DNA of 64,000 bases from Candidatus Stammera capleta (GCA_015140255.1 CP043993.1:143579-207578); one strand, 5' to 3'. Numbered from the stretch's first letter, positions 1-64,000 are shown. Notes: generated by a model from the sequence alone, not told the origin. Program-made: numbers and translations.

Positions 1-391
1 TTAGATATTTATTTTTTGAATATAAATTACTAATTTTTTTTATTAAACTTCCTATAACATCATCACCTTCTACATCAGGTAAACAAAAATAATTAATATT
101 TAATATTTTTAAAAAACTTTTAATACTTGAAATATATAAAACTAATTCTCTAGAAATTTTTTTACGATTAGATTTATATTCTTTATAAATTTTTTTTCTA
201 AAATTATTTCTATCATAATCAAAAATTAGTAATAGGTAATTTGGTTTACAAAATTTGTATTTACTAAAAATCATTTTTCAAAATACTAAAAAAGATTTTT
301 TAAAATTTATTTTTTTTTTTTTATAATTTATTATATAAAAAGATTTGTAGGCATATAATGTTGCATCTATTAAAAAAAATACATTACGCAT
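1..391 (-). CDS. polA: DNA polymerase I 5'-3' exonuclease domain, N-terminal part; the gene runs off the window start
   Basis: Minus-strand ORF from ATG at 389-391. Translation MRNVFFLIDATLYAYKSFY...LLLIFDYDRNNFRKKIYKEYKSNRKK...DVEGDDVIGSLIKK matches the FEN/5'-exo N-terminus of Pol I (E. coli LVDGSSYLYRAYHA...FD..FR...YK..R...EADDVIGTLA). One in-frame TGA is read as Trp. I cannot tell whether a polymerase domain follows. Confidence 0.75.
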
Positions 392-689
392 AATAACTAA
401 ATTTTATTTAATCACTAAAACAAATTTAAATTTTTATTGTTTGTACTAATTTTAAGTAATTACAACTATATAATATTATAGTTTTAATAATAATACCCCC
501 ATTATATTTTATATATAAATTATTTTTAAATATACTTTTGAAATATTTATTTATTGTAATTTAATTAACAAAAGTTATTATACTACTAACAATAATAAAT
601 TTCAAGTTTTTAAAAGTATAATTTGATTCATTTTAAATAACAATATATAATAAAAATATACTTCAAAGAATTATTTATAGATTATTGTT

Positions 690-2573
690 ATGAATTTAAT
701 TAACGAATTATTTGATGTTATTATAGTAGGAGGTGGACATGCCGGTATAGAAGCATCTTATATTTTATCTAAAATGAAAAAAAAAACTTTACTAATTACT
801 TATAATAAAAATAAGATAGGAGAAATGTCTTGTAATCCTGCAATAGGTGGAATAGGTAAAAGTAATTTAGTAAAAGAAATAGATGCTATTGGTGGATTAA
901 TGGGTCAAATTATAGATATTTCTGCTATACATTATAAAATTTTAAATTCTAGTAAAGGTGAGGCTGTAAGAGCTACAAGAGTACAAATAGATAAAGAAAT
1001 ATATAAAAAAAATATAAATAATAAACTAAAAAAATTAAAGTATTTAACTATATATCAGGATGAAGTTATTGATTTAATAATTGAAAAATACTGTATTAAA
1101 GGAGTTATTACTACTAAAAAAAAAATATTTTCTAATACCGTAATATTATCTACAGGAACATTTTTAAATGCTAAAATGTTTATAGGATTAAATTCTTATA
1201 TTGGTGGTAGAATGTTTGATCATTCATCTAGTGGAATTATTAATTCTTTAAGTAAATATTTTAAAGATATAAAATATTTTAAAACAGGTACCCCCCCTAG
1301 ATTAGAAAAAAAAACTATTAATTTTTCTTTTTTTAAAGAAGAATTAAGTGATACTATAAATAGTTTTTCTTTTTTTCATAATATAAGAGAAAAAAAAAAT
1401 AAATTAAAAAAAATTAAATGTTATTTAACATATACTAATAAATATACACATAAGATTGTAAAAAAAAATTTAAATAAAAGTCCTTTATATAAAGGTTATA
1501 TAATAGGTAAAGGACCTAGATATTGTCCTTCAATAGAAGATAAAGTAATAAATTTTCCTAATAAAAAAAATCATCGTATATTTTTAGAATTAGAAAGTTT
1601 AAATAGTAATATAATTTATCCTAATGGTATTTCTACTAGTTTACCTTTAGATATTCAAAAAAAAATTATTCATTCTATAAAAGGTATGGAAAATACAAAA
1701 ATTATTATTCCAGGTTATGCAGTTCAATATGCTTTTTTAAATCCTAAAAAATTAAAAAAAACTTTGGAAAGTAAGATAATAAATAATTTATTTTTTGCTG
1801 GTCAAATAAATGGTACTACTGGTTATGAAGAAGCAGCTGCTCAAGGATTAGTAGCAGGTATTAATGTTGGTCTTAAACTTACTAATAAAAATCAAAATTA
1901 TATATTTGATAGATCTAATTCTTATATAGGTGTATTAATAGATGATTTATGTAGTAAAGGTGTAAACGAACCATATAGAATATTTACATCTCGATCTGAA
2001 TATAGATTATTTCTTAGAGAAGATAATGCAGATTATAGATTAACTCCTATAGGATATAAATTAGGATTAATAAATAAAAAAAAATGATCTTTTTTTAAAA
2101 AAAAAATGAATTATATTAAAAACAATTATTATTTTATTAAAAATAAAAAAATTTACATTAAATATTTGCCTAAAAAAATAAAAAATAAATTTATTAAAAA
2201 AAAAATTAATAAGGTTAATTTAAAAAATTTAGTTTTAAATTATGATATTTTATCCAAAAATTTTACAAAAATATTTAAAAAATATAGTAATAAAATTAAT
2301 ATTAATTATATTAAAGAATCAGAAATTATTTTAAAGTATAAAGGATATATTAAAAAACAAAAAATAGATTTATTTAAGTTTAATAAATATAAAAATATTT
2401 CTTTATCTAAAAATATTAATTGAAATAAAGTTTCTGGTTTATCTAAAGAAGTAATAGAAAAATTAAATAAATATAAACCAAAATATTTAAATCAAGCTTA
2501 TAAAATATCTGGTATTAATCCGTCTTCTATATTAAGTATAATTATTTATTTAAAAAAAAATATAAAAAATTAA
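690..2573 (+). CDS. mnmG: tRNA uridine 5-carboxymethylaminomethyl modification enzyme MnmG (GidA)
   Basis: Same-frame pieces 690-2087, 2106-2423 and a tail to TAA 2571-2573 are joined by in-frame TGA at 2085 and 2421. FAD motif [30 protein letters not shown], and C-terminal [12 protein letters not shown]...ISGINPSSI. About 627 aa, as for MnmG. Confidence 0.95.
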
Positions 2574-2684
2574 ATTAAATTTAAAATTGTTTTTTTTATT
2601 AAAAAAATATAAAATAATAATGTTTAGTAATAAAAATTAATTTTAAATTTTAAAAATTAAAGTATTTATTTAAAAAATTTTACT

Positions 2685-3497
2685 ATGATAAAAAATATTA
2701 TTTGAAAGTTTAAACTACCTTCTAACTATATTAAACATCATTTAGCTCACTTACAATTTAATTTAATAAAATTAAAATTTTTAAATAATTTAAATTATAA
2801 ATACTCTTTTTGAAATTTAAATATAGATTCGTTAATTATATCACTTTTTATAGGTACAATATTTTTATTTTTTATAAAATATTCAGTAAATTCGTTAAGG
2901 TATAATCATATACCAAATAAATTACAAACTTTAATAGATATATTAATTTTATTTATTTATAAAAATGTAATTAATATATATGGTAAAAAAAATAAATTCG
3001 TTTTTTCTTTATCTTTTACAGTATTTACATGAATTTTACTTATGAATTTTATGGGTTTACTACCTGTAGATTTAATAAACAATATCTTTTATTTTATATT
3101 TAAATCCAATATATTTTCATATGTACCTTCTTCAGATTTAAATATAACTTTATCTATGTCATTGAGTGTTTTTTTATTTATTATTTTTTATAAATTATAT
3201 AAATATAATTATAAAAAAATATTTAAGGAATTTTTATTTCATCCATTTAATTGTAAAATTTTTATACCAATAAATATTTTATTAGAAATAATAAATTTTT
3301 TTTCTAAAATTTTATCTTTATCTTTAAGATTATTTGGAAATATATATTCTGGTGAAATAATATTTTTATTAATTTATTATATAGTTCCTTGGTGATTACA
3401 ATTTTTTTTTATATTTCCTTTAACTTTATTACATATATTAATTTCTTTTTTACAATCTTTTATATTTATGATACTTACATTAATTTATATATCATAA
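2685..3497 (+). CDS. atpB: F0F1 ATP synthase subunit a
   Basis: ATG 2685 to TAA 3495-3497 with several in-frame TGA. LSLRLFGNIYSGEIIF...VPWW(TGG then TGA 3393-3395)LQ...LQSFIFMILTLIY matches the AtpB C-terminus. Sits upstream of atpE. Confidence 0.92.
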
Positions 3498-3507
3498 ATT
3501 TTATTTT

Positions 3508-3752
<245 letters not shown>

Positions 3753-3786
3753 AATTATAAAATTTAATTAAATAATAAATTTAAAT

Positions 3787-4272
3787 ATGGAAATAAATGT
3801 TACTGTATTAATACAAATGATAATATTTTTATTTTATATAATTTTTTGTGTCAAATATATTTGACCTTATATTAATAAGGTAATTGAAAAAAGACAAAAA
3901 AAAATATATTTAGAAAATAAAAAAATTAAAAAAATAAAAAAAAAATTTTTGTTTTTTAAAAACGAAATTAAAAAAAAAATTTTAAATAGTAAAAAATTAT
4001 CTTCTAAAATTATTTTAGAAGCTAAAAATAATAGTATTTTATTAATTGAAAAATATAAAATTAAAGCTAAAAAAGAATATAAAAAAATATTATATGAAGC
4101 TAGTAAGGAAAATATTATACAAAAAAAAATTATGTATGAAAAATTTTTTAAAAATATTTCTGATATTATAAATTTAATATTAATTAATATTACCTCAAAT
4201 ACATTTGATAAAAAAATTGATAATAAGTATATTAGTAAAGTTTTAAACAAATTCAAAATTAAAAAAAATTAA
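3787..4272 (+). CDS. atpF: F0F1 ATP synthase subunit b
   Basis: ATG 3787. MEINVTVLIQMIIFLFYIIFCVKYIW(TGA)PYINKVIEKRQKKI parallels the E. coli AtpF N-terminus (..[21 protein letters not shown]). Runs in frame into track ORF 3949-4272. Confidence 0.88.
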
Positions 4273-4285
4273 TAAATTAAATATT

Positions 4286-4843: not shown

Positions 4844-4847
4844 AAAA

Positions 4848-7260: not shown

Positions 7261-7285
7261 ATAAAATTTTATAATTTAAATATAA

Positions 7286-8677
<1,392 letters not shown>

Positions 8678-8688
8678 TTTTTTGAAAT

Positions 8689-9111
8689 ATGAATTTTAAT
8701 TTTTTAATGATGTCTCCAAAAAAAATATATTTTAATGATTTTATAAATTATATAAAATTATTTAGTTATTCTAATAAATTAGAAATTTATCCCAATCATA
8801 CTCCTATATTATTGTATTTAAATAATACAATTATTAAAGTATATAAAAATAAGTATATTTATTTCTATATTAGTAAGGGTTTTTTAGAGTTTAAATTTAA
8901 TAAACTAATTTTATTAATAAATAAATTAGTAGAATTTGATATTTTAAATAAAAAAAAATATTTATCTAAAAAAAATAAAATTTTGTCTTTATTAAAAAAT
9001 AAAGTTATTTATAAAAATAATTTAAATAAATTTTTAAATTTAAATTTAAAATTAATTAATTATAATAATTTTTTATATTTTTATAAAAAAAATAAAAAGT
9101 TAGTTAAATAA
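8689..9111 (+). CDS. atpC: F0F1 ATP synthase subunit epsilon
   Basis: 140-aa ORF directly after atpD. ..LEIYPNHTPIL.. resembles LGIYPGHAPLL of AtpC. Confidence 0.85.
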   Translation: MNFNFLMMSPKKIYFNDFINYIKLFSYSNKLEIYPNHTPILLYLNNTIIKVYKNKYIYFYISKGFLEFKFNKLILLINKLVEFDILNKKKYLSKKNKILSLLKNKVIYKNNLNKFLNLNLKLINYNNFLYFYKKNKKLVK

Positions 9112-9173
9112 TTAATACTTTTATATTTGTATATATTATTATATAATTATAATGATTAAAATTTTTAATATAC

Positions 9174-9246
9174 GGGGTTATAGCTCAATTGGCAGAGCAT
9201 CTGTTTTGCAAGCAGAAGGTAAGCGGTTCGAATCCGCTTAACTCCA
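9174..9246 (+). tRNA. tRNA-Ala (anticodon UGC)
   Basis: GGGGTTATAGCTCAATTGGCAGAGCATCTGTTTTGCAAGCAGAAGGTAAGCGGTTCGAATCCGCTTAACTCCA. G3:U70 identity pair, anticodon loop TTTGCAA, homologous to E. coli alaT. No encoded CCA. Confidence 0.93.
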
Positions 9247-9251
9247 TATAA

Positions 9252-9324
<73 letters not shown>

Positions 9325-9337
9325 TATATTTAAAAAA

Positions 9338-9419: not shown

Positions 9420-9427
9420 TTTATTAA

Positions 9428-9499: not shown

Positions 9500-9510
9500 A
9501 AGTATAATTT

Positions 9511-12102
9511 TTAGTAATATATTAAATTAACATTGTTTATTTTTATTTTAGTAAATTTTATTTCTTTTTTCTTTAAATTTGATTGATTAAAAATATTTTT
9601 CTTTGAAAAAATAATTTTATTTATTTTAATAAGTTTAAATAAATATATGTTTTCTATAAAAATTTTTTTTTTATTTAAATTTATATCTAAAATTATTAAA
9701 ATATTTATTTCTTTTTTATTTTTTTTATTTATTTTTCTTATATAAGTTATAATTTTTTGTATTGTTATAAAAATTTTTATTATATTGTGATTATTGAAAT
9801 TATTTTTATATTTAGGTAATTTAGTTTTTAATATAGAATTATTTTTATTTATTTTTTTTCATATATATTCTGTAATAAATGGAGTGATAGGGTGAGATAA
9901 TTTTAATATTTTAATAAAAATATGTGTTAGTATTAATTTATTATTTGTATTTAAACAATTATTTTTGATTTTTATTTTAGTTATTTCTATATATCAGTCA
10001 GAAAAAATATTTTTAATAAAGAAAAACATTACTTGATTAATTATATCGAATCTAAATTCTTTAATATTTTTTTTAAAATTTTTAATTAATATATTTATAT
10101 TATAATAAACTCAATATTCAGTTAAATTTAATTTATTTATATTAATTTTTTTTTTATTTATTTTAATTTTTAAATATTTAAATATAAATATATATATATT
10201 TCATATTTTATTACAATAATTAAAACTATGATTTAATTTTTTTATATCAAAATTTATTTTAATTTTTGTATTAGACATAGAACATAAAGTATGTCTTAAA
10301 ACATCTACTCCATAAGATTTAATTCCATTTGGAAAATTTTTTTTAGTATCTTTAATAATTTTACAAATTGATTTTTCTTTTATTATATTTTTAGTTCTTT
10401 TTTTAATTAATTTACTTAATTTAATACCTTTAATAATATCTATAGGATCTATTACATTACCTATGGACTTAGACATTTTTTTGCCATTTTCATCTCTTAT
10501 TAAACCTGTAAGAAGTACTTTTTTAAAAGGAATTTTTAGATAAGAATATTTTTTAGAAATATATGAACTTATCATAATCATTCTAGATATTCAAAAGAAA
10601 ATTATATCAAAACCACTTACAATTAAATTTATGGGATAAAATTTTTTTAATAAAATATGATTTTTTGGTCAACCTAATGATGTAAAAGCTCATATTGATG
10701 AAGAAAATCATGTATCTAAAACATTTGTATCTTGTTTAAGTTTATTTTTAATATTATATTTTGATAGAATTTTTTTTTTATTTTTTCCTACATATACATT
10801 ATTATTTTTATCATACCATATAGGTATTTTATGTCCTCAATATATTTGTCGTGAAATACATCAGTCTTGTATATTTTCCATTCATTTAAAAAATATTTTT
10901 TTATATTTTGTTGGAATAAAAATTATTTTTTTTTTTTTTACTAAACTAATAGCTTTTTTAGCTAAAGGATTAGTTTTTAAATATCATTGATTAGTAATTA
11001 TAATAATTAATCTAGAGTTAGTTTTATTACTTAAATATATATTAGATATTTTTTTCTTAATTTTTAGTATATATTTTTTTTTTTTTAAAAAATTAATTAT
11101 TTTTTTTTTTACATATTTAGAATTAAATTTTTTAATTTTTAATATTTTACTTATATTAATTTTTTTTTTTTTTTTTCATTTATAATTTAATATTTTAATT
11201 TTTTTTTTAAATGATCCATCTAAATTATAAATATTAATAATATCTAAATTAAATTTTTTACAATAAATTAAATGATTTATTTTATGTCCAGGTATAATTT
11301 TAGTATATTTTTTTTTTTTTGAATATTTAATTTTTTTATTATATATTATTTTAATGATATTTTTTGTTAAAGGATTAATTAATTTTTTACCTATTAATTT
11401 TTTATTTTTATTTTTTATTCCTAATGCTATTGTTCCTAACAATAATTCTGGTTGAGTAGTTTCTATTATTATAAAATCATTATTTTTTAAAAAATTTAAT
11501 TTTATAAAATAATTTTTTAATATTTTTTTTTCTTTATTAATTTCTAAATCTGATAAAACACATTTAATTTTTTTATCTCAATACATAGCTTTTTTAGTTT
11601 TATATATTAATTTTTTTTTATATAAATATATAAAAATTTTTTGTACAGATTTAGTAAAATTTTTATCTAATGAAAAACATGTATTAGATCAGTCTACAGA
11701 ACTACCTAAAATTTTAGTTTGTTGATAGATTTTTTTTTCGTGTTTTTTTTTTCATTTTCATATTTCATTAATAATTTTTTTTTTAGATATTTTTTTTAAT
11801 GTTTTATGTTTTTTTTTTATATAATTTTCTACAATTATTTGTGTAGATATACCAGCATGATCTGTACCCATTATTCATAATGTATTGTATCCAGACATTT
11901 TTTTATACCTTATTATTAGGTCCATAATAATTTGCTGAAATGCATGACCTATATGTAAATATCCAGTTATATTAGGTGGTGGCATAATTATAGAAAAATT
12001 TTTTTTATTATTTTTATTTATATTTGGTTTAAATAAATTATTTTTTTTTCAGTATGAATAAATTAATTTACATTTTTTTATATTTAAATTATTTTTTTTC
12101 AT
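9511..12102 (-). CDS. valS: valyl-tRNA synthetase
   Basis: ATG at 12100-12102 down to TAA (tta on the plus strand) at 9511-9513. I checked the frame triplet by triplet over most of the gene: many in-frame TGA, no TAA or [21 protein letters not shown] (HIGH region with the PPP triplet), [35 protein letters not shown] (KMSKS). 863 aa. Confidence 0.93.
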
Positions 12103-14368: not shown

Positions 14369-15094
14369 ATGTTAGAAAATAAGAAAATTTTAATTGTAGA
14401 TGATGATATAGAATTAATATCTATTTTAAAAAATTATTTAAGTAAGTATAATTTTAATGTAAAAAATGTTATAAATTCTATTCAGATGCAAAGATTATTA
14501 GTTAGAGAAATATTTCATTTAATTATATTAGATTTAGTTTTACCTGGTGAGGATGGTTTATCAGTATGTAAAAGATTACGTAGTGAAGATAATTTTATTC
14601 CTATAATTATAGTAACTGCTAAAAATGATGATATAGATCGTGTTATAGGTTTAGAAGTTGGTGCTGATGATTATATTTCTAAACCTTTTAATCCTAGAGA
14701 ATTATTAGCTCGTATAAGATCTCTATTAAGACGTCAATATTATGAAACATCAAGTATATCATTATTTAAAGAAGATATTATAGTAAAATTTGGTAATTGT
14801 GAATTAAATTTAATTACTAGAGAAATGTTTAAAAATAATAAAAAAATTTTTTTAACTAGTAGTGAATTTTCCATATTAAAAGTTTTAATAAATAATGCTA
14901 AAAAACCTTTATCTAGAGAAAAATTAATGTTTTTAGCTAGAGGTAAAGAATATAATGCTATAGAAAGATCCATAGATGTACAAATATCAAGATTACGTCG
15001 TTTAATTGAAAATAATTCTTTTAAACCTAGATATATACAAACTGTTTGAGGTTTAGGTTATGTTTTTGTACCAGATAGTAATAATATACAATAA
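14369..15094 (+). CDS. ompR: OmpR-family response regulator, OmpR orthologue
   Basis: 241 aa. KILIVDDD, FHLIILDLVLPGEDGLSVCKRLRS, PIIIVTAK..DRVIGLEVGADDYISKPFNPRELLARIRSLLRRQ, and SIDVQISRLRRLIENN...PRYIQTVW(TGA 15047-15049)GLGYVFVPD are almost block-for-block E. coli OmpR. The phospho-acceptor Asp, the acidic pair and the KPF Lys are all present. Confidence 0.93.
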
Positions 15095-15170: not shown

Positions 15171-15243
15171 CAGGGGTAGAAGGATTTGAACCTTAACCTA
15201 TGATTTTGGAGACCATTATTCTACCGGATTAAACTATACCCCT
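15171..15243 (-). tRNA. tRNA-Trp (anticodon CCA)
   Basis: Minus strand AGGGGTATAGTTTAATCCGGTAGAATAATGGTCTCCAAAATCATAGGTTAAGGTTCAAATCCTTCTACCCCTG. Homologous to E. coli trpT (AGGGGCG..., discriminator G). Anticodon loop CTCCAAA. D-stem is GTTT/GAAT, giving a U11:A24 pair. No encoded CCA. Confidence 0.9.
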
Positions 15244-15448: not shown

Positions 15449-15796
15449 ATGAAAGATGAAAATATATTTAAAAAAATTGTTTCTGGTAAAATAAAAACAA
15501 AAATTATTTATAAAGATAAAGATGTAACTGCTTTTTATGATATTAAACCTAAATCATTAGTACATATAATTATTATACCTAATATTTATATAAAAAATAT
15601 GAATGAAATAAAAAAAGAACATATTATTATTTTAGGTAAAATGTTATATATATCTTCTAAAATAGCAAAAAAAAAAGGTATTAGTAAAAATGGATATAGA
15701 ATAGTAATAAATTGTAATAAACATGCTGGGCAAGAAATATTTTATTTACATATACATTTATTAGGAGGTAATTATTTAGGTGATATAGTAAATTAA
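15449..15796 (+). CDS. hinT: HIT-family purine nucleoside phosphoramidase HinT
   Basis: 115 aa. IFKKIVSGKI, VTAFYDIKP..LVHIIIIPN, GYRIVINCNKHAGQEIFYLHIHLLGG (histidine triad). Confidence 0.9.
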   Translation: MKDENIFKKIVSGKIKTKIIYKDKDVTAFYDIKPKSLVHIIIIPNIYIKNMNEIKKEHIIILGKMLYISSKIAKKKGISKNGYRIVINCNKHAGQEIFYLHIHLLGGNYLGDIVN

Positions 15797-22371: not shown

Positions 22372-22533
22372 AAAAGTATTTAAATTGTATATATTTATAT
22401 TTATTATATTATTAGATTCATAAAATTTATATATTTTATAAAACGATTTGTTTTTAAAATTTATTTAGAAATTTATTTAATATATTTATGTTTTTAAAAA
22501 AATGTAGTAATATAATAATTATTATTAGTTGGT

Positions 22534-22538
22534 GAGGA
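22534..22538 (+). promoter_or_regulatory. Shine-Dalgarno (GAGGA within GGTGAGGA) for trxA
   Basis: gagga lies 6 nt upstream of the ATG at 22545. Confidence 0.55.
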
Positions 22539-22544
22539 ATTTAT

Positions 22545-22877
22545 ATGAATAAAAATATTTTAGATGTAGATAGTGATTCTTTTAAAAATGAAGTGTTAAA
22601 TTATAATGGATATGTATTAGTTGATTTTTGAGCAAGTTGATGTAATCCTTGTAAATTATTTGGTAAAATTTTTAGTAATGTTTATAAAAAATTTTATAAA
22701 AAAGTTAAGTTTGTTAAAGTAAATATAGAAAATTCCAGTCATATTCAAAATAAATATAATATTAGAAGTATTCCAACTATAATATTATTTAATAATGGTG
22801 TTATTTTATCTACTAAGGTAGGTTTATTAAAAGAATCTGATTTAATTAATTTTTTAAATTCTCATAAGTTAGATTAA
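22545..22877 (+). CDS. trxA: thioredoxin
   Basis: 110 aa. VLVDFW(TGA 22629)ASW(TGA 22638)CNPCK active-site region, and IRSIPTIILFNNG. Lies upstream of rho as in E. coli. Confidence 0.92.
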
Positions 22878-26328: not shown

Positions 26329-27528
26329 ATGAAATTTTATCTTGTTGGTGGAGCTGTAAGAGATAAATTATTAGGTATAAATATTAGAGATAAAGATTGA
26401 GTAGTGATTAATTCTTCATATAAAGAAATGATTGATTTAGGTTTTAAAGCTGTAGGTAATTATTTTCCTGTTTTTATTCATCCTATAACTAAAGAAGAAT
26501 ATGCTTTAGCTCGTACAGAAAAAAAAATTGGTTTAGGATATAATGGTTTTATATGTGATTTTTCTAATAAAATTACTTTAAAACAAGATTTATTTCGTAG
26601 AGATTTAACAATTAATGCTATAGCATTAGATGATAAAGGTAATTATTATGATCCTTATAAAGGTATAGAAGATATTAAAAATCGTATTATAAGACATATT
26701 TCTCATTATTTTTCTGATGATCCATTAAGAGTTTTTAGAGTAGCTCAATTTTATTCTCGTTTTTTAAATTTTAATTTTTCTATTTATCCTAAAACTTTAT
26801 TTCTAATGAGTAAAATATCATCTTCGGGTGAATTATTATCTTTAAGTGTAGAAAGAATTTGAATAGAAACTAAAAAAGTTTTAAAAAATTATAATATTTT
26901 CTGATATTTTAATATTTTAAATAAATGTAAAGCTTTAAAAATAGTTTTTCCAGAAATTATTTTTTTATTTAGAGATAATATTAAAAAACAATATTTTAAT
27001 TTATTATCTATTAGATTATTACATTTAAAATGTAGTACAAAATTAAATTTTTCTTTTGTCTGTTTTTTTTTTTATGAAACAATTTTATCAAAAAATTTTT
27101 TTTTAAATAAAAATTTTTATTTTTTAAAAATAAAAAATTTTTGTAAAAGATTATGTATTCCTAAAAAATATTTTTTATCATTTAAATTTTTATATAAATT
27201 TTTACTTAAGATTTTTTTTTTAAATAAAACTAAATTAGTTCAATATATTTTAGATATTTTTTATGAAATAGATATATGACGTAAACCTAAAATTTTATGA
27301 GATATTATAAGTATAATGAATATTTTTCAATTGTTACCTTTAAAAAATAAATTTTTCTTTTTATTTTTAAAAAATTATTTATTAGATATTTATAATACTA
27401 TTTTTATAATTAAAAATAAATATATAATTAAATTGGGTTTTAAAGGTATTGAAATAGGTAAGAAATTATATGAATTACGTTTTAAAAAAATTTTTTTTTT
27501 TATAAAAGAAAGAATAAATAAAAGTTAA
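26329..27528 (+). CDS. cca: CCA-adding tRNA nucleotidyltransferase
   Basis: [24 protein letters not shown](TGA)VV, FPVFIHPITKEEYALARTEKK, RRDLTINAIALDD, DPLRVFRVAQF. Pieces at 26329, 26404 and 27316 share one frame, 399 aa. The region aligned to the E. coli HD motif (LCHDLGK, HHGHG) reads FVCFFFYETILSK, so the HD phosphohydrolase signature appears lost. Confidence 0.9.
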
Positions 27529-30611: not shown

Positions 30612-32408
30612 ATGAATAAAAAAAAAAAAAATTATTTAAACTTATTAATTAATAAAGGTAAAGAAAAAGGTTATGTAACTTTTTCTCAAATAAATAATAG
30701 TATATTTATAAATAAACATTTAGAATCATTACAATTTGAAGAAGTAGTAAATATAATTAGTAATTTAGGTATTCCAGTAATAGAGGATAATTCTGAAGTT
30801 AATGAGTTAATTTTTAATGAAAATAATACTACTAATATATCATCTAGTGATGTTTCTGATATTATTTTATCTAAAGTTAATTCTGATGTAGGTAAAACTA
30901 ATGATCCAGTAAGAATGTACATGAGAGAAATGGGTACTGTAGAATTACTTACTAGAGAAGATGAAATTAATATAGCTAAATATATTGAAAATAATCTTAA
31001 AAAAATGCAATTTTATTTAGCTAAATTTTTAAAATCTATTGATTATTTTTTAAATCAATATTCTTTAGTAAAAAAAGGTAAATTACGTTTATGTGATTTA
31101 ATTATTGGTTTTGTAGATTATAATATTGATTTTTCTTTATTAACAGATTCATATTCTTTATTTAATATTAAAAAAAAGAATAATAATAGTTTATGTTATA
31201 TATATATAAATTTTATAAAAAAAAAATTTGATTGTTTATATTTTCAATATAATTTATTAAAAAAATTTATTGATATATATACTATTAATCATCCTTATAC
31301 TAAATATGAATTAAATAAATTAATTAATATTTTTATGGAATTTAAATTATCTCCTAAACAATTTAATTATTTAATATTAAAACATAAAAATATAGTAAAG
31401 AAAATTTTTTCTGTTGAAAAAAATATTTTTAATTTATGTGTAAAAAAATGTTTTGTGCCTAAAAATATTTTTTATAAATTTTTTTTAAAATATGGAACTA
31501 ATAAAAAATGATTATTTAAAGTTATTAATATGAATCAATTTTGATCAATAAAATTAAAAAAATATTTAATTAAATTAAATAATAAATTAAATATTTTATT
31601 TAATATAGAAAAAAAAGTTTGTTTAAATATTTTAAAAATTAAAAAAATTAATAGATTTCTATTACATAGTGAACATAAAGCTAATAAAGCTAAAAAAAAT
31701 ATGGTAGAAGCTAATTTGAGGTTAGTTATATCTATAGCAAAAAAATATACTAATAGAGGTTTACAATTTTTAGATTTAATACAGGAAGGAAATATAGGTT
31801 TAATGAAAGCTGTAGATAAATTTGAATATAAGAGAGGTTATAAATTTTCTACTTATGCTACATGATGGATTAGACAAGCTATTACTAGATCAATAGCTGA
31901 TCAAGCACGTACTATTAGAATACCTGTTCATATGATAGAAACTATTAATAAATTAAATAGAATTTCTAGACAAATATTACAAGAGATAGGTAGAGAACCT
32001 ACTCCAGAAGAGTTATCAGCTAAAATGTTAATTTCAGAAGATAAGATTAGAAAAGTTTTAAAGATAGCTAAAGAACCTATTTCTATGGAAACTCCTATAG
32101 GAGAAGATGAAGATTTACATTTAGGTGATTTTATAGAAGATTCTTCAATAGAATTACCTTTAGATTCAGCAACTTCTGAAAGTTTAAAATCAGTAACTAA
32201 TAATATTTTATCGAGTTTAACTCCTAGAGAAGCTAAAGTTTTAAGAATGCGTTTTGGAATAGATATGAATAGTGATCATACATTGGAAGAAGTAGGTAAA
32301 CAATTTGATGTTACTAGGGAAAGGATTAGACAAATAGAAGCTAAAGCATTACGTAAATTACGTCATCCTAGTAGATCAGAGATTTTACGTAGTTTTTTAG
32401 ATGATTAA
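30612..32408 (+). CDS. rpoD: RNA polymerase sigma-70
   Basis: [73 protein letters not shown](TGA 31863)W(TGG)[55 protein letters not shown]. 598 aa. Confidence 0.97.
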
Positions 32409-40900: not shown

Positions 40901-41126
40901 CATAAAATTTTTGTTTACAAAGAATCGTAATCGTATATGTATATTAAGTATTGATGATAGTTCTGGTAGTTTAGAAGTAATTTTATTGAAAGATATATAT
41001 AATCAATATTCATCTTTAATTGAAATTAATAATATTATTATTATATTAGGTTTATTAAAATTTGAATTTAATAAATATAATATTTCTTTTTTAGCTAATA
41101 AAATTATTTTATATAATAAGGAGTAA
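37920..41126 (+). CDS. dnaE: DNA polymerase III subunit alpha
   Basis: PHP N-terminus [105 protein letters not shown]. Four track pieces in one frame. 1068 aa. Confidence 0.96.
41118..41123 (+). promoter_or_regulatory. Shine-Dalgarno (AAGGAG) for rpmB, embedded in the last codons of dnaE
   Basis: aaggag lies 9 nt upstream of the ATG at 41133. Confidence 0.55.
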
Positions 41127-44127: not shown

Positions 44128-44919
44128 ATGTTATTAGTTGATTCTCATTGTCATCTTGATATTTTAATGAATTTTAAAAAAAAATATAAAAATATTAATA
44201 AATTAATAAATTTATTTAAAAAAAATAAGTTTTTGTATTTATTAACTATATCTACTAATATTAAAAATTTTTTTAGTATTTTTAGTATGTTTTCATATAT
44301 AGATATTATTAAATTATCTTGTGGTATACATCCTCTTTATATTGAAACTGTTACTAATAGTGATTATTTAGATTTAGAAAAATTTGTTTCTTATAAAAAA
44401 GTTATTGCTGTTGGTGAAACTGGTTTAGATTATAAAATAAATATTAAAAAAAATATAAAAAAAAAACAAATAGATCTTTTTATTTATCATTTATATTTAG
44501 CTAATAAATATAGAAAACCTTGTATTATTCATTCAAGAAATTCTTATAATGATACTTTAAATATTATTAAAAAATTTAATATTAATTTATTTGGTGCTGT
44601 TATACATTGTTATAGTTATTTTAAAAAAAAAGTTTTATTTAAATTTTTAGATTGTGGTGTTTATATATCTATTTCTGGATTAATAACTTATAAAAATAAT
44701 TTTTTATTACAAAAAATTATAAAGTATATTCCTTTAGATAAATTATTAGTTGAAACAGATTCTCCTTATTTGACACCTTATCCTTATAGAGGGAGTATCA
44801 ATAATCCTTCTAAAATTATATTTACATTTAAACAAATTTCTAAACTTAAAAAAATTAGTTTTTATAAAATATTAAAAATTAATATAAATAATTTTTTAAA
44901 TTTATTTAATATTTTTTAG
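44128..44919 (+). CDS. ycfH: TatD-family metal-dependent hydrolase YcfH
   Basis: MLLVDSHCHLD, GIHPL, AVGETGLDY, PCIIHSR, IHCYS, YISISG, LLVETDSPYLTP. Stop is TAG. Confidence 0.92.
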   Translation: MLLVDSHCHLDILMNFKKKYKNINKLINLFKKNKFLYLLTISTNIKNFFSIFSMFSYIDIIKLSCGIHPLYIETVTNSDYLDLEKFVSYKKVIAVGETGLDYKINIKKNIKKKQIDLFIYHLYLANKYRKPCIIHSRNSYNDTLNIIKKFNINLFGAVIHCYSYFKKKVLFKFLDCGVYISISGLITYKNNFLLQKIIKYIPLDKLLVETDSPYLTPYPYRGSINNPSKIIFTFKQISKLKKISFYKILKININNFLNLFNIF

Positions 44920-45787
44920 TTGTTTTTTTTTAACTATAAAAATTTGATATTTTTTTTTTTTTATTTTAATTCAATTAATTTTGATTAATTTATTTTTTTT
45001 TATAATTATTTTTTTTTGATGTCCTGTTTCACATATTAAGTATCCTTTTTTATTTAAATATTTATATGATCTACTAATTATTTTTTGTATTAAATAAGTT
45101 CCTTTATCTTTACTTATTAAAGATATTTTAGGTTCATAAGAATATTCTTTTGGTAAATATTTTATATCTTTTTTATTTATATATGGTGGGATTACTAATT
45201 ATAAGATCATATTTATTTTTTATTTTTTCAAATAAATTTGATTTAATTAATTTAATTTGTTTTTTTTTTTTATGAATTAAAATATTTTTTTTAGCTATTT
45301 TAAGTGCTTTTTTTGATATATCTATGGCATCTATTTTAGACTCAGGAAATATATATGCACAACATATAGCTATACATCCACTACCAGTACATAAGTCTAA
45401 TATTTTTTTTGGATAATATTTTTTTTTAATAAATTGAAATTTATTTTTTATTATTTCAGATATAGGTGATCTAGGTATGATAACTCTATTATCAATATAA
45501 AATTTTTTATTACAAAATCATGTATTTTTAGTTAAATAAGCTATAGGTATTTTTTTTTTTATTCTTAATTTAGCTAATTTAATAATTTTATTTCTTTGTT
45601 TTTTTGTTATTTTATAATATTTAATTGTATTAATTTTTTTATTTATATTTATTTTTAATATTGAATATATTAAATGTATAGTTTCTGTATAATAATTATA
45701 TGTTCCATGACCATAATATATATTATTATGTTTAAATAGTCTATTGCAATATTTGATTAAATTTAATAAAAATAATTTATTTTTCAT
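44902..45787 (-). pseudogene. prmB: 50S ribosomal protein L3 glutamine N5-methyltransferase PrmB, with the reading frame broken by one extra nucleotide inside the NPPY motif (a pseudogene, or dependent on a +1 frameshift)
   Basis: The 5' frame from ATG 45787 reads ..IYYGHGTYNYYTE.., IPIAYLTKNTW(TGA)FCNKKFYIDNRVIIPRSPISE, ILDLCTGSGCIAICCAY, KYDLIISN-P-T-I-Y-K-stop (TAA at 45173-45175). The +1 frame continues PPYINKKDIKYLPKEYSYEPKISL...GYLICETG to TAA at 44902-44904. The junction on the minus strand is AGT AAT CCC ACC ATA T (plus strand 45181-45196); removing one C gives AAT CCA CCA TAT = NPPY. Confidence 0.8.
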
Positions 45788-45830: not shown

Positions 45831-45911
45831 ACGGAAGTGGCGAAATTGGTAGACGCACTAGAATTAGGGTCTAGTACTTTATGTGTGCGAGTTCAAATCT
45901 CGTCTTCCGTA
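45831..45911 (+). tRNA. tRNA-Leu (anticodon UAG)
   Basis: ACGGAAGTGGCGAAATTGGTAGACGCACTAGAATTAGGGTCTAGTACTTTATGTGTGCGAGTTCAAATCTCGTCTTCCGTA. Resembles E. coli leuW. Long variable arm. Confidence 0.9.
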
Positions 45912-45919
45912 TTTTGTAG

Positions 45920-45990
45920 TGGGGTATAGCCAAGTGGTAAGGCATCGGGTTTTGATCCCGAGATCCCAGGTTCAAATCCTGGTACCCCGG
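45920..45990 (+). tRNA. tRNA-Gln (anticodon UUG)
   Basis: TGGGGTATAGCCAAGTGGTAAGGCATCGGGTTTTGATCCCGAGATCCCAGGTTCAAATCCTGGTACCCCGG. Resembles E. coli glnU. Confidence 0.92.
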
Positions 45991-45995
45991 TAAAA

Positions 45996-46069
45996 GGCTA
46001 CGTAGCTTAGTTGGTTAGAGCACAGCACTCATAACGCTGAGGTCACAGGTTCAATTCCTGTCGTAGCTA
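45996..46069 (+). tRNA. tRNA-Met, elongator (anticodon CAU)
   Basis: GGCTACGTAGCTTAGTTGGTTAGAGCACAGCACTCATAACGCTGAGGTCACAGGTTCAATTCCTGTCGTAGCTA. The body matches E. coli metT rather than ileX or initiator tRNA. The Leu-Gln-Met order echoes the E. coli metT-leuW-glnU operon. Confidence 0.85.
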
Positions 46070-46091
46070 TTAAATTTAACTTAATATTATT

Positions 46092-47426
46092 ATGTGTGAA
46101 AAAGTATATATAAAAACTTGAGGTTGTCAAATGAATCATTATGATTCAAATAAAATCAAGGTATATTTAAGTAATTATATAAATTATTCATTAGTCTATT
46201 GTTTAGATGAAGCAAATATAATTATATTAAATACTTGTTCTGTACGACAAAAAGCTCAAGATAAATTATTTTTTTTTCTTGATAGAATTAAAAATATTAA
46301 AAAATTTAAAAATAATATAATTGTTGCTGTAGGTGGTTGTGTATCAATGCAAGAAAAAGAAAAAATTTTTTTACGTAGTAATATAGTTGATATAATTTTT
46401 GGTCCACAAACTTTACATAAAATTTATGATTTTATTTTAAAATTTAGAAAAAATAAAAAAAAAATTATTGACATAAATTTTTCTGGTATAGAAAAAAATA
46501 TTGATTTACCTAATAATATAAATTTAAATTTTAATAGAAGATCTTTATCTTATGTTTCTATTATGGAAGGTTGTAATAAATTTTGTTCTTATTGTATTGT
46601 TCCTTATACTAGAGGTAGAGAAATAAGTAGATCACCAGAGAATATAATTTCTGAAATATGTAGATTATCTTTATATGGAGTTTCTGAAATAAATTTATTA
46701 GGTCAAAATGTTAATGCGTATAATGGTATTTTAAAAAATAATAAAAGATGTGATTTTTCTTACTTGTTAAAATTAATTTCTAATATAGATGGTATTAAAA
46801 GAATTAAATTTACTACTAGTCATCCTAATAATTTTACTGATAAATTAATTAATACTTATAGTAAGATTAGTAAAATAATTAATTTTTTACATTTACCTAT
46901 TCAAAGTGGTTCAGATAATATTTTAAAAAAGATGCGTAGAGGTTATACTACAGATTATTATAAAAATTTAGTTAAAAAAATTTTATGTGTAAGAAAAAAT
47001 ATGATTTTTGGTTCTGATTTTATAGTTGGTTTTCCTACTGAAAGTATTGAAGATTTTCAATTAACTTTAGATTTAGTATCAAAAATAAAATTTGATAATA
47101 GTTTTGTATTTATGTATTCACCTAGACCACATACTAAATCTTTTAATGTATTAGATGACGTAAGTATAGAAGAAAAAAAGAATAGGTTATATAAAATTAA
47201 CGATTTACTTTATAAGAATTCTATTTATTGAAAAAATAAAATGATTAATTCTATACAAAAAGTATTAGTTGAAGGTGTTTCTTCAAAAAATTTAGATTTT
47301 TATTTTGGTTATACTGAAAATAGTAAAATTGTTTATTTTAAAGGTTATAAAAATTTATTAGGTCAATTAATTAAAATAAAAATTATAAAATTATATAAAA
47401 ATTATTTATATGGTGTTTTAATTTAG
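46092..47426 (+). CDS. miaB: tRNA-2-methylthio-N6-dimethylallyladenosine synthase MiaB
   Basis: MCEKVYIKTW(TGA)GCQMNHYDS, NTCSVRQKAQDK, radical-SAM CNKFCSYCIVPYTRGRE, LHLPIQSGSD, FIVGFPTES. Joins track ORF 47241-47426 (TRAM domain) through TGA. 444 aa. Confidence 0.94.
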
Positions 47427-47434: not shown

Positions 47435-48100
47435 ATGAAAAAAAATATTTTTTTTTTAAAAACAAAGTATAGTTTAATAAAACCTAAAACTAAAATGCAA
47501 TTTTATTATATTAATAATATTTTAAGTAAAATTATTACTTTTGGAATAGGTGTATCAGGTACTGGTAAAACATATTTAGCTACAGCAGCAGCCATAGATT
47601 ATCTTAAAAAAAGAAAAATATATAGAATTATATTAGCTAGACCTATTGTAGAAGCAGGAGAAAAATTAGGTTATTTACCCGGTAGTTTTAATCAAAAGAT
47701 AAATCCTTATTTATGTCCTATATATGATATTTTATTTGAAATATTAGGTCCAAATTTTAGTAAAAAATATATATCTCATAACATTATTGAAGTAGTTCCT
47801 TTAGCATATATGAGAGGTAGAACATTTAATGATTCTTTTATCATATTAGATGAAGCTCAAAATACTACTATTTCTCAAATGAAAATGTTTTTAACACGTT
47901 TAGGTTTTAATTCAAAAGCAGTAATTAATGGAGATATATCTCAAATTGATTTACCTAATAAAAATTATTCTGGTTTAAAACATGCTATAAATATATGTAA
48001 AAATATAAATGATATTGGTATAACTTTTTTAGGTATTAAAGATATTATGCGTTCTTCTATTGTAGCAAATATAGTTAAAGCTTATGATAATAATAAATAA
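47435..48100 (+). CDS. ybeZ: PhoH-like ATPase YbeZ (short form, PhoH core only)
   Basis: GVSGTGKTYLATAAAI, ILARPIVEAGEKLGYLPG, PLAYMRGRTFNDSFIILDEAQNT, GDISQIDLP. 221 aa. miaB-ybeZ-ybeY order as in E. coli. Confidence 0.9.
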   Translation: MKKNIFFLKTKYSLIKPKTKMQFYYINNILSKIITFGIGVSGTGKTYLATAAAIDYLKKRKIYRIILARPIVEAGEKLGYLPGSFNQKINPYLCPIYDILFEILGPNFSKKYISHNIIEVVPLAYMRGRTFNDSFIILDEAQNTTISQMKMFLTRLGFNSKAVINGDISQIDLPNKNYSGLKHAINICKNINDIGITFLGIKDIMRSSIVANIVKAYDNNK

Positions 48101-52655: not shown

Positions 52656-56696
<4,041 letters not shown>

Positions 56697-56744
56697 TTTT
56701 AAATAATTAATTTAATTATTTTATATTTTAAGGTTACTATTATT

Positions 56745-60947
<4,203 letters not shown>

Positions 60948-60965
60948 TTAATAAATTTAATAATT

Positions 60966-61949
60966 ATGAAAAAAAAACTTTTTAGTGCCATACAGCCTAG
61001 TGGTGGTGTTACTATAGGTCATTATATAGGAATTTTAAAAAAATGATTTTTAGTACAAAAAAAATATAATTGTTTTTATTGTATAGCAGATTTACATTCT
61101 TATACTAATAATTTTAAAAAAAAAAAAAAATATATATTAGATATATTATCTATAATATTAGCTCTAGATATAGATTATAAGAAAAACATTATTTTTTTAC
61201 AATCTCATATTTATGAACATACTCAATTATATTGATTATTTAATTGTTGTTCTTATATAGGTGAATTAAAACGTATGACACAATTTAAACAAAAATCTAA
61301 AAAAAATAAATTTATTAATTGTGGTTTATTTACTTATCCTATATTAATGGCAGCTGATATATTATTATATAACTCTAATTATGTTATTATAGGTCAAGAT
61401 CAAGTTCAACATTTAGAATTTACATGTAATATTGCTAAAAGAATTAATAAATTATTTAGTAAAAAAATATTTTTTTTACCTAATTGTATTTTTTCTTCAT
61501 GTTCTAAAGTAATGTCTTTATTAAATCCTAAAAAAAAAATGTCTACATCAGATATTAATAAATTTAATGTTATTTATTTATTAGATAATTTGGATTTAGT
61601 TACTACTAAAATTAATAATTCTTTTACTGATAGTGATGTTCCTGCAAAAATTATTTTTGATATGGTTAAAAAACCTGGAATATCTAATTTATTAAATATT
61701 TTATCTAATATTAGTGATATATCTATTTTAGATTTAGAAAATAAATTTATTGGTTATTCTTATAAAGAATTTAAAAAAATAGTAATTAATAAATTAATAA
61801 ATTTTTTAAAATTATTACAGAAAAGATTTTTTTTCTTTCGTAAAAAAGAAAAATTTTTAAAAAAAATTTTATTAGAAGGTAAAAGAAAAGCTAAAATAGA
61901 AGCTAAAAAAAATATGTTTTTTATTAAAAAATTATTTTTTGATATTTAA
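60966..61949 (+). CDS. trpS: tryptophanyl-tRNA synthetase
   Basis: LFSAIQPSGGVTIGHYIG, FYCIADLHS, GELKRMTQFKQKS, YPILMAADILLY, IGQDQVQHLEF, KKMSTSD (KMSKS). A 15-A run at 61116-61130 is in frame. 327 aa. Confidence 0.93.
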
Positions 61950-61958
61950 TAATTATTT

Positions 61959-62612
61959 TTACCATATAATGGGTATTTTATTTTTTTTTTTTAAGTAAAT
62001 ATTTGCTTTTTTAAAGTGATTACATCCAAAAAAACTTTTTTCAGCTGATAAAGGTGAAGGATGTGAACATGTTAAAATTAAATGTTTTTTATTATTAATA
62101 ATTTTTTTTTTTTTTTGAGCATGTTTACCTCATAACATAAAAACTATATTTTTTAAATAAAAATTTATGTATTTAATAATGTTATCTGAAAAGATTTCTC
62201 ATCCTATATTTTTATGAGAACATGATTTATTTTTTTCTACTGTAAGAATTGTATTAAATAAAAAGACACCTTGTTTGACTCAATTTATTAAATATCCATT
62301 TGATGGTTTTTTAAAATCTTTAAATTCATATTGTAATTCTTTATATATATTTATAATAGATTTAGGTAATTTATTATTAGGTAATATAGAAAAAGCTAAT
62401 CCATGTGCCATATTTTCTCCATAATATGGGTCTTGACCTAATATAACTACTTTAATATTATTAAATTTTATTAATTTAAATATTTCAAAAATATTTTTTT
62501 TTTTAGGAAAGATTATTTTTTTTTTTTTATATTCATTTTTTAAAAAATTTATTATTTTTATAAAATATTTTTTTTTTTTTTCTTTTTGAAAAATTATTTT
62601 TCAATCTATCAT
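61959..62612 (-). CDS. ung: uracil-DNA glycosylase
   Basis: Not in the ORF track (four in-frame TGA). Frame checked codon by codon from ATG 62610-62612 to TAA at 61959-61961. KVVILGQDPYYGENMAHGLAFS, GYLINW(TGA)VKQGVFLFNTILTVE, NIGW(TGA)E.F, FMLW(TGA)GKHAQ, LTCSHPSPLSA. 217 aa. Confidence 0.92.
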
Positions 62613-62613
62613 T

Positions 62614-63474
62614 TTACTTATTTTTTTTAATATTAATATATAAAAAAATTTTTTTTTTGAAATTTAAGTATTTTGCTATACTTTTTTTAGATAAATATAT
62701 TATTTTTTTAATTTTATTTCCAAATTTACCTATTAATATAGGGATATGTTGTTTTTTATTAATATATAAATTACTATTTATATAATAATATTTTTTTTTT
62801 TTAATAATATTTTCTATTTTAAATTTTATTAGATATGGTATTTCATCTCCTGTGAGTCTAAATATTTTTTCTCTAATTATTTCTTTAAATATTTCTTGTT
62901 TACTATATATGTTATTTTTTTTTCAATAAAAATTTGATTTAATTAAATATTTATTTATAATTTTATTTATTATTTTAATATTTTTTTTTTTTTTTGCTGA
63001 TATGGGTATAATAGTATTAAAATTTGTATATGATTTAATTTTTTTTATATAAGGTAATATTTTTTCTTTATTTTTTAATTTATCTATTTTGTTTATTATT
63101 ATTATGTAAGGTATTTTATATAAATTAATTTTATTAATTATTCTAATTTCTTCAAAAAATTTTTCTATTTTAACTATCAGTATAATTAAATTAATTTTTT
63201 TATTAATTTTATTTTTTTTTAAAATATCTAATGCATTATTAATATTTTTATCTATATCTTTTATAAATTTAAATCCTGGTGTATCTATATATATATAAAG
63301 TTTTTTATTTTTATTATTTATTCCTAAAATATTTTTTTGAGTAGTATATTTTTTTTTAGATGTAATAGAAATTTTTTTATTTATTAATTTATTAAATAAA
63401 GTTGATTTTCCAACATTAGGTTTACCTACTATTAGGGTAATACATATTTTTTTAATTTTATTTTTTTTTTGCAT
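62614..63474 (-). CDS. era: GTPase Era
   Basis: G1 IVGKPNVGKSTLFNKL, ISITSKK..TT, G3 IDTPG, G4 INKID, and after TGA 62923 the KH domain ..EIIREKIFRLTGDEIPY.. Ends at TAA 62614-62616. 286 aa. The start overlaps the rnc end by 17 nt. Confidence 0.92.
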
Positions 63475-64000
63475 TAATTTTACTTTTAATTAGTCCTATT
63501 TTAATTAAAGTTTGTTTAGCAGATTTTTGTTCTGCTTCTTTTTTACTATATCCTATACCTTTAAAAATTTTATTTATTATTTTTGTTTTACATTTAACTA
63601 CAAATATTTGTTTATGTTCTTTTCCTTTTTTTTCTGATATATAATATTTAGGTAAAGGTAATTTAATTTTTTGTAAATATTCTTGTAGGATAGTTTTATA
63701 ATCTTTATGATTATTTTTTTTATTTAATATTTTTTTATTATTTTTATAATTAAAAAATAATTTTTTTACAATTTTTTCTACTATTTTAATATTTTTACTA
63801 TCTATGAATATAGCTCCTATTATTGCTTCTAAAGTATTAGCTAAAATAGATATTTTATATTGTCCTAACATTTTTATTTCACCTTGTCCTAATAAAATAT
63901 ATTTATTTAATTTTATATTTTGAGCTATTTTAAATAAATTATTTTTATTTACTAAATTAGCTCTTATTCTAGTCATGAAACCTTCTTTTTTATTAGAAAA
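63458..64000 (-). CDS. rnc: ribonuclease III, C-terminal two thirds; the 5' end lies beyond the window
   Basis: ..(F)MTRIRANLVNKNNL.., ILANTLEAIIGAIFIDS, and dsRBD KDYKTILQEYLQKIKLPLPKY...GIGYSKKEAEQKSAKQTLIKI. The frame is open to position 64000. rnc-era order as in E. coli. Confidence 0.9.
   Translation of the reverse strand, partial: FSNKKEGFMTRIRANLVNKNNLFKIAQNIKLNKYILLGQGEIKMLGQYKISILANTLEAIIGAIFIDSKNIKIVEKIVKKLFFNYKNNKKILNKKNNHKDYKTILQEYLQKIKLPLPKYYISEKKGKEHKQIFVVKCKTKIINKIFKGIGYSKKEAEQKSAKQTLIKIGLIKSKINAKKK

Follow-up and report, generated by a model that had tools for sequence, protein, structure and literature searches.

The window, the whole 64-kb stretch of DNA analysed here, is with a probability of roughly 0.95 part of the ~302-kb chromosome of Candidatus Stammera, and it is to be read with translation table 4, in which UGA encodes Trp and UAA and UAG terminate (a mechanism that we infer is appended below). 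The recoding is correct, but it is already known: code 4 in Stammera has been published since Salem et al. 2017 and was re-confirmed in surveys of 2021-2026, so that the recoding itself is a textbook-level case. What the comparison within the genus adds is to narrow slightly how a CCA anticodon serves a set of Trp codons that consists almost entirely of UGA.

Codon usage and gene ends

Calling ORFs with TAA and TAG as the sole stops yields 61 protein genes that cover ~94% of the window, which has a GC content of 17.4%. The longest ORF measures 1414 amino acids with these two stops versus 627 under code 11, in line with an earlier reading made from the sequence only, which had described long genes as split by TGA under the standard code. 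There are 141 in-frame TGA codons, spread over 41 of the 61 genes (67%), and 11 in-frame TGG codons. TGA thus makes up 93% of the Trp codons in the window, and the two codons together account for 0.77% of the 19,867 codons. Annotation of the window needs table 4, as table 11 wrongly splits two thirds of the genes. The features discussed in the text are collected in Table 1.

Table 1. Coordinates of the features discussed (lower-case w, Trp encoded by TGA)
Feature	Position	Strand	Remarks
61 protein genes	1..64000	.	ORF calls, masked alignment, stop counts
atpB	2685..3497	+	4 TGA, 3 opposite E. coli Trp
valS	9511..12102	-	most TGA of any window gene (19), plus 1 TGG
ompR	14369..15094	+	one TGA, 15047, in conserved TVWGLGYVF motif
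tRNA-Trp	15171..15243	-	sole tRNA-Trp in window; anticodon CCA
trxA	22488..22877	+	active-site FwASwCNPC
cca, CCA-adding enzyme	26329..27528	+	needed for the 3' CCA of tRNA-Trp
rpoD	30612..32408	+	masked alignment to E. coli
miaB	46092..47426	+	44% identity to E. coli MiaB
rpoB	52656..56696	+	65% identity to E. coli
rpoC	56746..60947	+	GTG start as in E. coli
trpS, tryptophanyl-tRNA synthetase	60966..61949	+	intact; 46% identity to E. coli TrpS

TAA ends 56 of the genes and TAG the other five (rpsU, skp, ycfH, miaB and rplK), while TGA terminates none of the 61. The first three TAG genes had been named before, together with the claim, upheld here, that TGA is never used as a stop. Not a single in-frame TAA or TAG occurs in the 19,867 codons of the 61 genes; off-frame, the same genes contain 3831 TAA and 1270 TAG triplets (5101 together).

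Two candidate constraints on TGA were rejected. The base that follows it is A in 45%, C in 9%, G in 18% and T in 28% of cases, as after any codon, which leaves no effect of 3' context. Tandem UGA-UGA is not avoided either, given that valS of two relatives (L096 and L097) contains TGA-TGA. The two credible WW doublets of the window each combine TGG with TGA: the order is TGG TGA in atpB (VPWw, 3390-3395), an arrangement kept in three code-4 relatives, and TGA TGG in rpoD (YATwWIRQ, 31863-31868). In the trxA ORF, a third WW doublet lies in an N-terminal extension that is doubtful, the true start probably being an ATG 19 codons in.

Residues opposite in-frame TGA

TGA was masked as X before alignment to E. 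coli K-12 orthologues. Trp stands opposite 68 of the 88 aligned TGA codons (77%), compared with a background of 0.88% (P = 3.5e-121), and opposite 7 of 8 aligned TGG codons. The remaining 20 TGA codons face other residues (Gly twice, Arg once, Cys never), all of them in poorly conserved stretches. Gene ends agree with this assignment: in 43 genes compared with E. coli, the C-termini differ by a median of -1 amino acid and extend by +9 at most, and in none of the 43 does a TGA at the orthologue's end precede an extension.

The sequence-only reading had proposed tabulating what orthologues carry opposite TGA, and the result is Trp at all three sites in rpoD, all three in rpoB and 7 of 8 in the part of rpoC downstream of 57045. 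The TGA positions it had cited in trxA, rpoD, atpB, rpoB, rpoC and ompR are all accurate. They include the Trp pair of the thioredoxin active site (WCNPC/FWASW; 22629-22631 and 22638-22640) and 53217, 55101 and 56493 in rpoB, which has one TGG besides. In rpoC, TGA is found at 56838 (SwSYGEV), at 57447 and at seven further sites; the first presumably corresponds to the W of the E. coli motif SWSFGEV. An N-terminal truncation or frameshift of rpoC was considered and ruled out by the GTG start at 56746. Both TGA codons of trpS fall at E. coli Trp positions.

Comparison with relatives gives the same picture. Window TGA sites are occupied by TGA in the code-4 relatives L095 (31 of 33) and L098 (24 of 31), and by TGG in L099 and L100 (24 of 33 in each), which have no sense TGA. 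The TGA sites of valS likewise appear as TGA in code-4 strains or as TGG in strains without sense TGA, and codon by codon TGG is the only triplet with which TGA alternates within the genus. The masked alignments, the gene ends matching those of orthologues and this codon-by-codon comparison together support UGA = Trp, the central claim of the sequence-only reading.

Could the standard code apply to genes that are decaying pseudogenes with premature TGA stops? The genes do fragment under code 11, and one of them, prmB, is truly frameshifted. Decay would, however, have to create not one in-frame TAA or TAG in DNA of 17% GC, leaving TGA as the sole interrupter, even though TAA is the commonest of the three stop triplets off-frame. 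It would also have to place 77% of the interruptions exactly at conserved Trp, maintain TGA sites between strains that are 60-85% identical in protein, and kill essential genes, among them rpoB, rpoC, rpoD, dnaE and those for aminoacyl-tRNA synthetases. We give this explanation practically no credence and consider it already refuted by these sequence comparisons.

Equally far-fetched is a reassignment of UGA to a residue other than Trp, be it Gly (code 25), Cys, Arg or selenocysteine. UGA = Gly occurs in Absconditabacteria and Gracilibacteria, and the two Gly residues among the 88 aligned positions could be quoted in its favour, but they stand against 68 Trp, one Arg and no Cys, and against the exclusive TGA/TGG alternation within the genus. 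The window contains neither a tRNA with anticodon UCA nor a tRNA-Sec, and neither tRNA-SeC nor selB is listed for Stammera in the literature.

Identity of the window and the release factor

AtpA encoded in the window is identical to an NCBI protein (P0122), as is ProS when translated with code 4 (P0127); the two matching proteins belong to a contig of 301,995 bp. A neighbour-joining tree of AtpA places the window within a 32-genome clade (genome sizes of 245-325 kb), one member of which is CP024013.1, the genome of Ca. Stammera capleta (PMC9543054). The window is syntenic with CP144856.1, and the order mnmG-atp-tRNAs-valS-pepA-efp-ompR-tRNA(Trp, Ile)-hinT-proS is identical in L095 and, gene losses aside, kept in L096-L104. 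The tree and the conserved gene order bear out what had been a guess at Ca. Stammera. In the deposited record of the same genome, code 4 has already been applied.

Stammera derives from the Enterobacterales and serves tortoise and hispine leaf beetles (Cassidinae) as a digestive symbiont. An Enterobacterales-like ancestry had been proposed from the gene orders trxA-rho, rpsU-dnaG-rpoD, tmk-holB-ycfH, miaB-ybeZ-ybeY, secE-nusG-rplKAJL-rpoBC and rnc-era, all of which are present. Rho is 86-88% identical to its counterparts in Enterobacter, Serratia, Pantoea and Morganella (among the matches listed), and the closest non-Stammera matches for AtpA and ProS come from Buchnera, Westeberhardia, Sodalis, Wigglesworthia and Pantoea. 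These similarities support the proposed ancestry. No rRNA or pectinase gene lies within the 64 kb, and positions 1-700, upstream of mnmG, contain no DnaA box within one mismatch.

Nothing of substance in the window differs from Stammera as published. The GC content of 17%, the ~302-kb chromosome, the synteny and a tRNA-Trp(CCA) with a 5-bp anticodon stem are shared, and the 67% of window genes with UGA compares with a published 62%, reported together with code 4, retention of trnW-CCA and absence of prfB, the gene for release factor 2 (RF2) (PMC10540940). Among the 61 window genes, which represent ~21% of the chromosome, there is no release-factor gene. The genus as a whole is less uniform. 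With 49-50 Stammera genomes available (Garcia-Lozano et al. 2024), prfB has been annotated in 15 of 49, some of which use code 4 (PMC13462651). The recoding may thus not strictly depend on the loss of RF2, or that loss may be incomplete. For the same reason an intact prfB, which the sequence-only reading had named as a finding that would refute the recoding, is no clean refutation of UGA = Trp.

These prfB annotations also favour an ambiguous UGA, read as Trp internally and as a stop in some genes by a retained RF2, as proposed for Providencia siddallii PSAC, a symbiont of Haementeria acuecueyetzin; a CCA anticodon reads UGA as a near-cognate codon, which may make decoding leaky. We nevertheless consider ambiguity very improbable for the window, where no gene terminates at TGA, where no orthologue's end is marked by TGA followed by an extension (tails of +9 amino acids at most), and where the share of TGA among Trp codons is far past the stage of PSAC. 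The latter is an instructive comparison. Like Stammera, PSAC belongs to the Enterobacterales, has kept tRNA-Trp(CCA) and uses UGA for Trp, but it is at an early stage: 20% of its genes contain UGA versus 67% in the window, ~9 genes still stop at UGA versus none in the window, and its prfB is kept, with an internal UGA. The earlier naming of Stammera as the only such case within the Enterobacterales is right as far as Stammera goes, and has to be widened by this one P. siddallii strain at an intermediate stage.

tRNA-Trp and a possible route to reassignment

The anticodon stem of the single tRNA-Trp in the window spans 5 bp, one of them the wobble pair G30.U40. The D stem reads GUUU...GAAU versus GUUC...GAGC in E. 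coli, and the pair U11-A24 takes the place of E. coli U11.G24. Anticodon CCA and U11-A24 were found in all nine Stammera tRNA-Trp genes examined (that of the window and those of eight relatives), under either code.

An unmodified tRNA-Trp(CCA) might not be the actual decoder of UGA, if a tRNA-Trp(UCA) were encoded outside the window or if C34 were converted post-transcriptionally to a base that pairs with A. The window is 21% of the genome, most other code-4 bacteria have a UCA anticodon, and C-to-U editing of tRNA-Trp occurs in some mitochondria. We know of no bacterial system that edits C34 of tRNA-Trp, however, and the nine CCA anticodons speak against a second type of gene. According to three papers Stammera genomes always lack tRNA-Trp(UCA), which is missing from all 49 surveyed in one of them (PMC13462651). 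A different decoder thus appears unlikely, though less so than any of the alternatives above.

A tRNA-Trp(UCA) is typical of code 4 without being obligatory. Hodgkinia, Nasuia and the Mycoplasmatales resemble Stammera in having reduced genomes, UGA = Trp and no RF2, but in these organisms a cognate tRNA-Trp(UCA) reads UGA, whereas Stammera has none. Candidatus Zinderia insecticola also does without UCA. It shares with Stammera UGA = Trp, a retained CCA anticodon, the absence of prfB and a very AT-rich genome; it differs in belonging to the Betaproteobacteria and in a tRNA-Trp(CCA) anticodon stem of 4 bp versus 5 bp in the window.

The closest parallel to the D-stem pair is the Hirsh UGA suppressor of E. 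coli, a tRNA-Trp(CCA) whose G24A mutation permits UGA reading (PMC13092985). Anticodon CCA and U11-A24 are common to both. The Hirsh suppressor, however, is a laboratory mutant with partial suppression against RF2 competition, whereas A24 is ancestral in Stammera, where any effect on decoding is putative, and is also found in strains without sense UGA. Four Stammera loci (L099, L101, L102 and L103) carry U11-A24 with no sense TGA, so A24 is not sufficient for UGA reading; as the code switch it was rejected, being present in all Stammera examined with both codes. The uppermost pair of the anticodon stem, 27-43, fared no better as a candidate switch. Four code-4 loci have A-U or G.A there (the G27.A43 mismatch being confined to L096 among the Stammera tRNA-Trp sampled) and the four loci without sense TGA have U-A, but the code-4 locus L104 has U-A as well. 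Among the features examined in the nine genes, none separates the two codes.

How might UGA have come to be read as Trp? Strong AT pressure would have made UGA very rare as a stop; in relatives without sense UGA, TGA ends 3 of 58 genes sampled. RF2 would then have become dispensable and been lost or weakened. The single tRNA-Trp(CCA) could read UGA by a C34.A third-position mismatch once RF2 competition was absent, probably aided by a D arm that possessed the Hirsh suppressor's U11-A24 pair beforehand, and mutations from TGG to TGA would subsequently pile up. With both codes in the genus and tRNA-Trp(CCA) alike in the features examined, U11-A24 throughout, reassignment may have taken place without any change in the tRNA: an AT-driven G24A would be a pre-adaptation, and loss or weakening of RF2 the only switch. 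We put this forward tentatively and think it somewhat doubtful. If true, it would make the genus a natural test of codon capture versus the ambiguous-intermediate model.

Two further genes may bear on the function of this tRNA. The tRNA-Trp gene specifies the discriminator G73 and does not encode the 3' CCA, for which reason cca is needed. MiaB adds the methylthio group of ms2i6A37, and the miaB product may possibly support reading of UNN codons, including UGA, by tRNA-Trp.

Reading frames and the identity of UGA

The window has a GC content of 17.4%. Read with the standard bacterial code (code 11), it has no ORF longer than 627 aa. When only TAA and TAG are allowed to terminate (code 4, UGA read as Trp), ORF length rises to as much as 1414 aa, and 94% of the window is covered by 63 ORFs that do not overlap. 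Two of these, antisense to tRNA gene clusters, are almost certainly spurious, and we excluded them to give a set of 61 genes. Among their 19,867 codons there are 141 in-frame TGA and 11 TGG. In-frame TAA or TAG is absent from all 61 genes, while the same sequences read off-frame contain 3831 TAA and 1270 TAG. The sequence-only reading had claimed that no gene end it could place is a TGA, and indeed 56 genes stop at TAA and five at TAG. The TGA sites it had cited in trxA, rpoD, atpB, rpoB, rpoC and ompR were each found as described.

That reading had also placed the TGA codons at conserved Trp positions and proposed an alignment to orthologues as a check. To keep an assumed identity from biasing the alignment, we translated the window genes with every TGA written as X and compared them with orthologue regions from E. 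coli K-12 (43 pairs, 15,046 aligned columns). The placement holds: 68 of 88 aligned TGA codons face an E. coli Trp, against a Trp background of 0.88% of columns (binomial P = 3.5e-121). The remaining 20 lie in poorly conserved stretches, where the opposite residues are scattered. TGG behaves similarly, with seven of eight aligned codons facing Trp; E. coli Trp columns thus hold TGA 68 times and TGG seven times. Decoding of UGA as Gly, Cys or Sec is not supported in this window, as aligned TGA faces Gly only twice and Cys never, compared with 68 times for Trp (Arg is found once). With TAA/TAG stops, the C-termini agree with those of E. coli (median offset, -1 aa; longest extension, +9 aa), except in a few genes, metG and dnaE among them, whose C-terminal end is shortened, and no TGA lies at an orthologous gene end among the window genes compared with E. 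coli. Given these alignments and gene ends, two further explanations are also unsupported in the window, namely that the genes are pseudogenes broken by TGA, and that UGA serves both as Trp and as stop. The earlier observation is confirmed, and the reading of UGA as Trp in the window is supported. The in-frame TGA codons of the window genes show no 3' context bias.

Ancestry and code use within Stammera

The proposed Enterobacterales-like ancestry agrees with Rho, which among the matches listed is 86-88% identical to the proteins of Enterobacter, Serratia, Pantoea and Morganella, identity declining via Vibrio, Alteromonas and Pasteurellaceae. An AtpA search returned 32 NCBI proteins at 65-92% identity, each on a single contig of 245-325 kb; the next matches (≤59%) were from Buchnera, Westeberhardia, Sodalis, Wigglesworthia and similar symbionts. 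In a neighbour-joining tree, the 32 proteins and the window AtpA form one long-branched clade. One member (NCBI protein P0024) is encoded on CP024013.1 (271,175 bp), which is 'Candidatus Stammera capleta' according to PMC9543054. The closest representative, P0001, is on CP144856.1 (302,130 bp), which shares its gene order with the window. The guess that the DNA is from Stammera, and the earlier interpretation with it, is supported. The window AtpA is identical to P0122, a cluster member, and ProS translated with code 4 is identical to P0127. These two NCBI proteins are encoded on a 301,995-bp contig, so the genome from which the window comes is publicly available, with Trp already assigned to TGA in its translation.

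The recoding itself is already known. Salem et al. 2017 described it, Stammera genomes are routinely annotated with table 4, and the deposited annotation applies code 4. PMC10540940 describes Stammera as prfB-negative, with trnW-CCA, 15.4% GC and UGA in 62% of CDSs, compared with 67% of genes in our window. The 49 genomes in PMC13462651 (13.9-20.4% GC; 0.22-0.34 Mb) have tRNA-Trp(CCA) but no tRNA-Trp(UCA), and prfB is present in 15. Five basal Stammera genomes with code 11 and retained prfB are described in a 2026 preprint, which also notes prfB in some code-4 assemblies.

We retrieved the tRNA-Trp locus from nine Stammera genomes, five with sense TGA and four without. Sampled genes of CP144856, CP144850, CP144853 and CP024013 contain 36-51 in-frame TGA, and a second CP144853 locus contains 23. 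Those of CP144793, CP144771, CP144774 and CP144787 contain no in-frame TGA and 22-36 TGG; TGA is the stop in three of 58 sampled genes of this group (proS in locus L101 of CP144771.1, envZ in CP144774.1 and a tilS fragment in CP144787.1). These four genomes agree with the code-11 lineage of the preprint. Codon by codon, window TGA lies opposite TGA at 31/33 and 24/31 sites in sense-TGA relatives, and opposite TGG at 24/33 sites in each of two relatives without sense TGA. Homologous sites have thus switched between TGG and TGA within the genus. In the window and in three other code-4 strains (CP144856.1, CP144850.1 and CP144853), the atpB WW doublet is written TGG TGA, its TGG being among the few conserved across the genus.

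tRNA-Trp and a possible route to recoding

The window encodes a single tRNA-Trp, along with trpS, cca and miaB. All nine Stammera tRNA-Trp genes examined keep the CCA anticodon and have U11-A24 in the D-stem, in place of the U11.G24 of E. coli. The change G24A, known as the Hirsh mutation, enables E. coli tRNA-Trp(CCA) to read UGA (PMC13092985). Because strains without sense UGA carry A24 as well, A24 is ancestral and not sufficient for UGA decoding as Trp, and we rejected it as the code switch. The 27-43 pair is A-U or G.A in four sense-TGA loci versus U-A in the four loci without sense TGA, but this candidate is ruled out by the code-4 strain CP144853, which has U-A. A rule against tandem TGA was not upheld by the Stammera loci examined. 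PMC13092985 places Stammera among code-4 bacteria whose tRNA-Trp(CCA) has a 5-bp anticodon stem; in code-4 CP144850.1, however, a G27.A43 mismatch leaves a 4-bp stem, and the D loop lacks the usual GG.

We propose that AT pressure may first have made UGA stops very rare, after which RF2 would have been lost or weakened. With this competition gone, a pre-existing Hirsh-like tRNA-Trp(CCA) could have read UGA as a near-cognate codon, and TGG would then have drifted to TGA. The presence of both codes in one genus provides a natural comparison for how efficiently a CCA anticodon decodes UGA.

Other features of the window

Coordinates of features in the window and of one tRNA gene in a relative
Feature	Position	Strand	Remark
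5'-3' exonuclease gene (polA-like or xni)	1-390	-	N-terminal part; continues beyond left window edge
atpB WW doublet	3390-3395		
Spurious ORF, 73 aa (code 4)	9104-9325	-	antisense to tRNA gene cluster
ompR	14369-15094		no envZ in window
tRNA-Trp, anticodon CCA	15171-15243	-	
metG	24402-26036		~140 C-terminal aa missing vs E. coli
dnaE	37920-41126		~90 C-terminal aa missing vs E. coli
prmB (ribosomal protein L3 glutamine methyltransferase)	44890-45787	-	1-nt insertion in catalytic NPPY motif
Spurious ORF, 86 aa (code 4)	45879-46139	-	antisense to tRNA gene cluster
ybeZ (phoH-like)	47435-48100		~120 N-terminal aa missing vs E. coli
tRNA-Trp(CCA) of CP144850.1 (locus L096)	15656-15730	-	

The prmB insertion (AAT CCC A CCA TAT) ends the ORF at 204 aa, and the final ~95 aa resume in a different frame; the gene may be a frameshifted pseudogene, or the extra base may reflect an assembly error or mark a slippage site. 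CP144856.1 also has ompR without envZ. In four other Stammera genomes (CP144853, CP144771.1, CP144774.1 and CP144787.1) envZ follows ompR, and ompR is absent from CP144850.1, CP024013.1 and CP144793.1. EnvZ/OmpR has been lost stepwise, and the window OmpR is an orphan response regulator.

No DnaA box within one mismatch was found between the 5'-3' exonuclease gene and mnmG. GC skew is positive in all 4-kb bins and the cumulative skew climbs steadily, which fits a position of the whole window on one replichore, adjoining an origin on the mnmG side.
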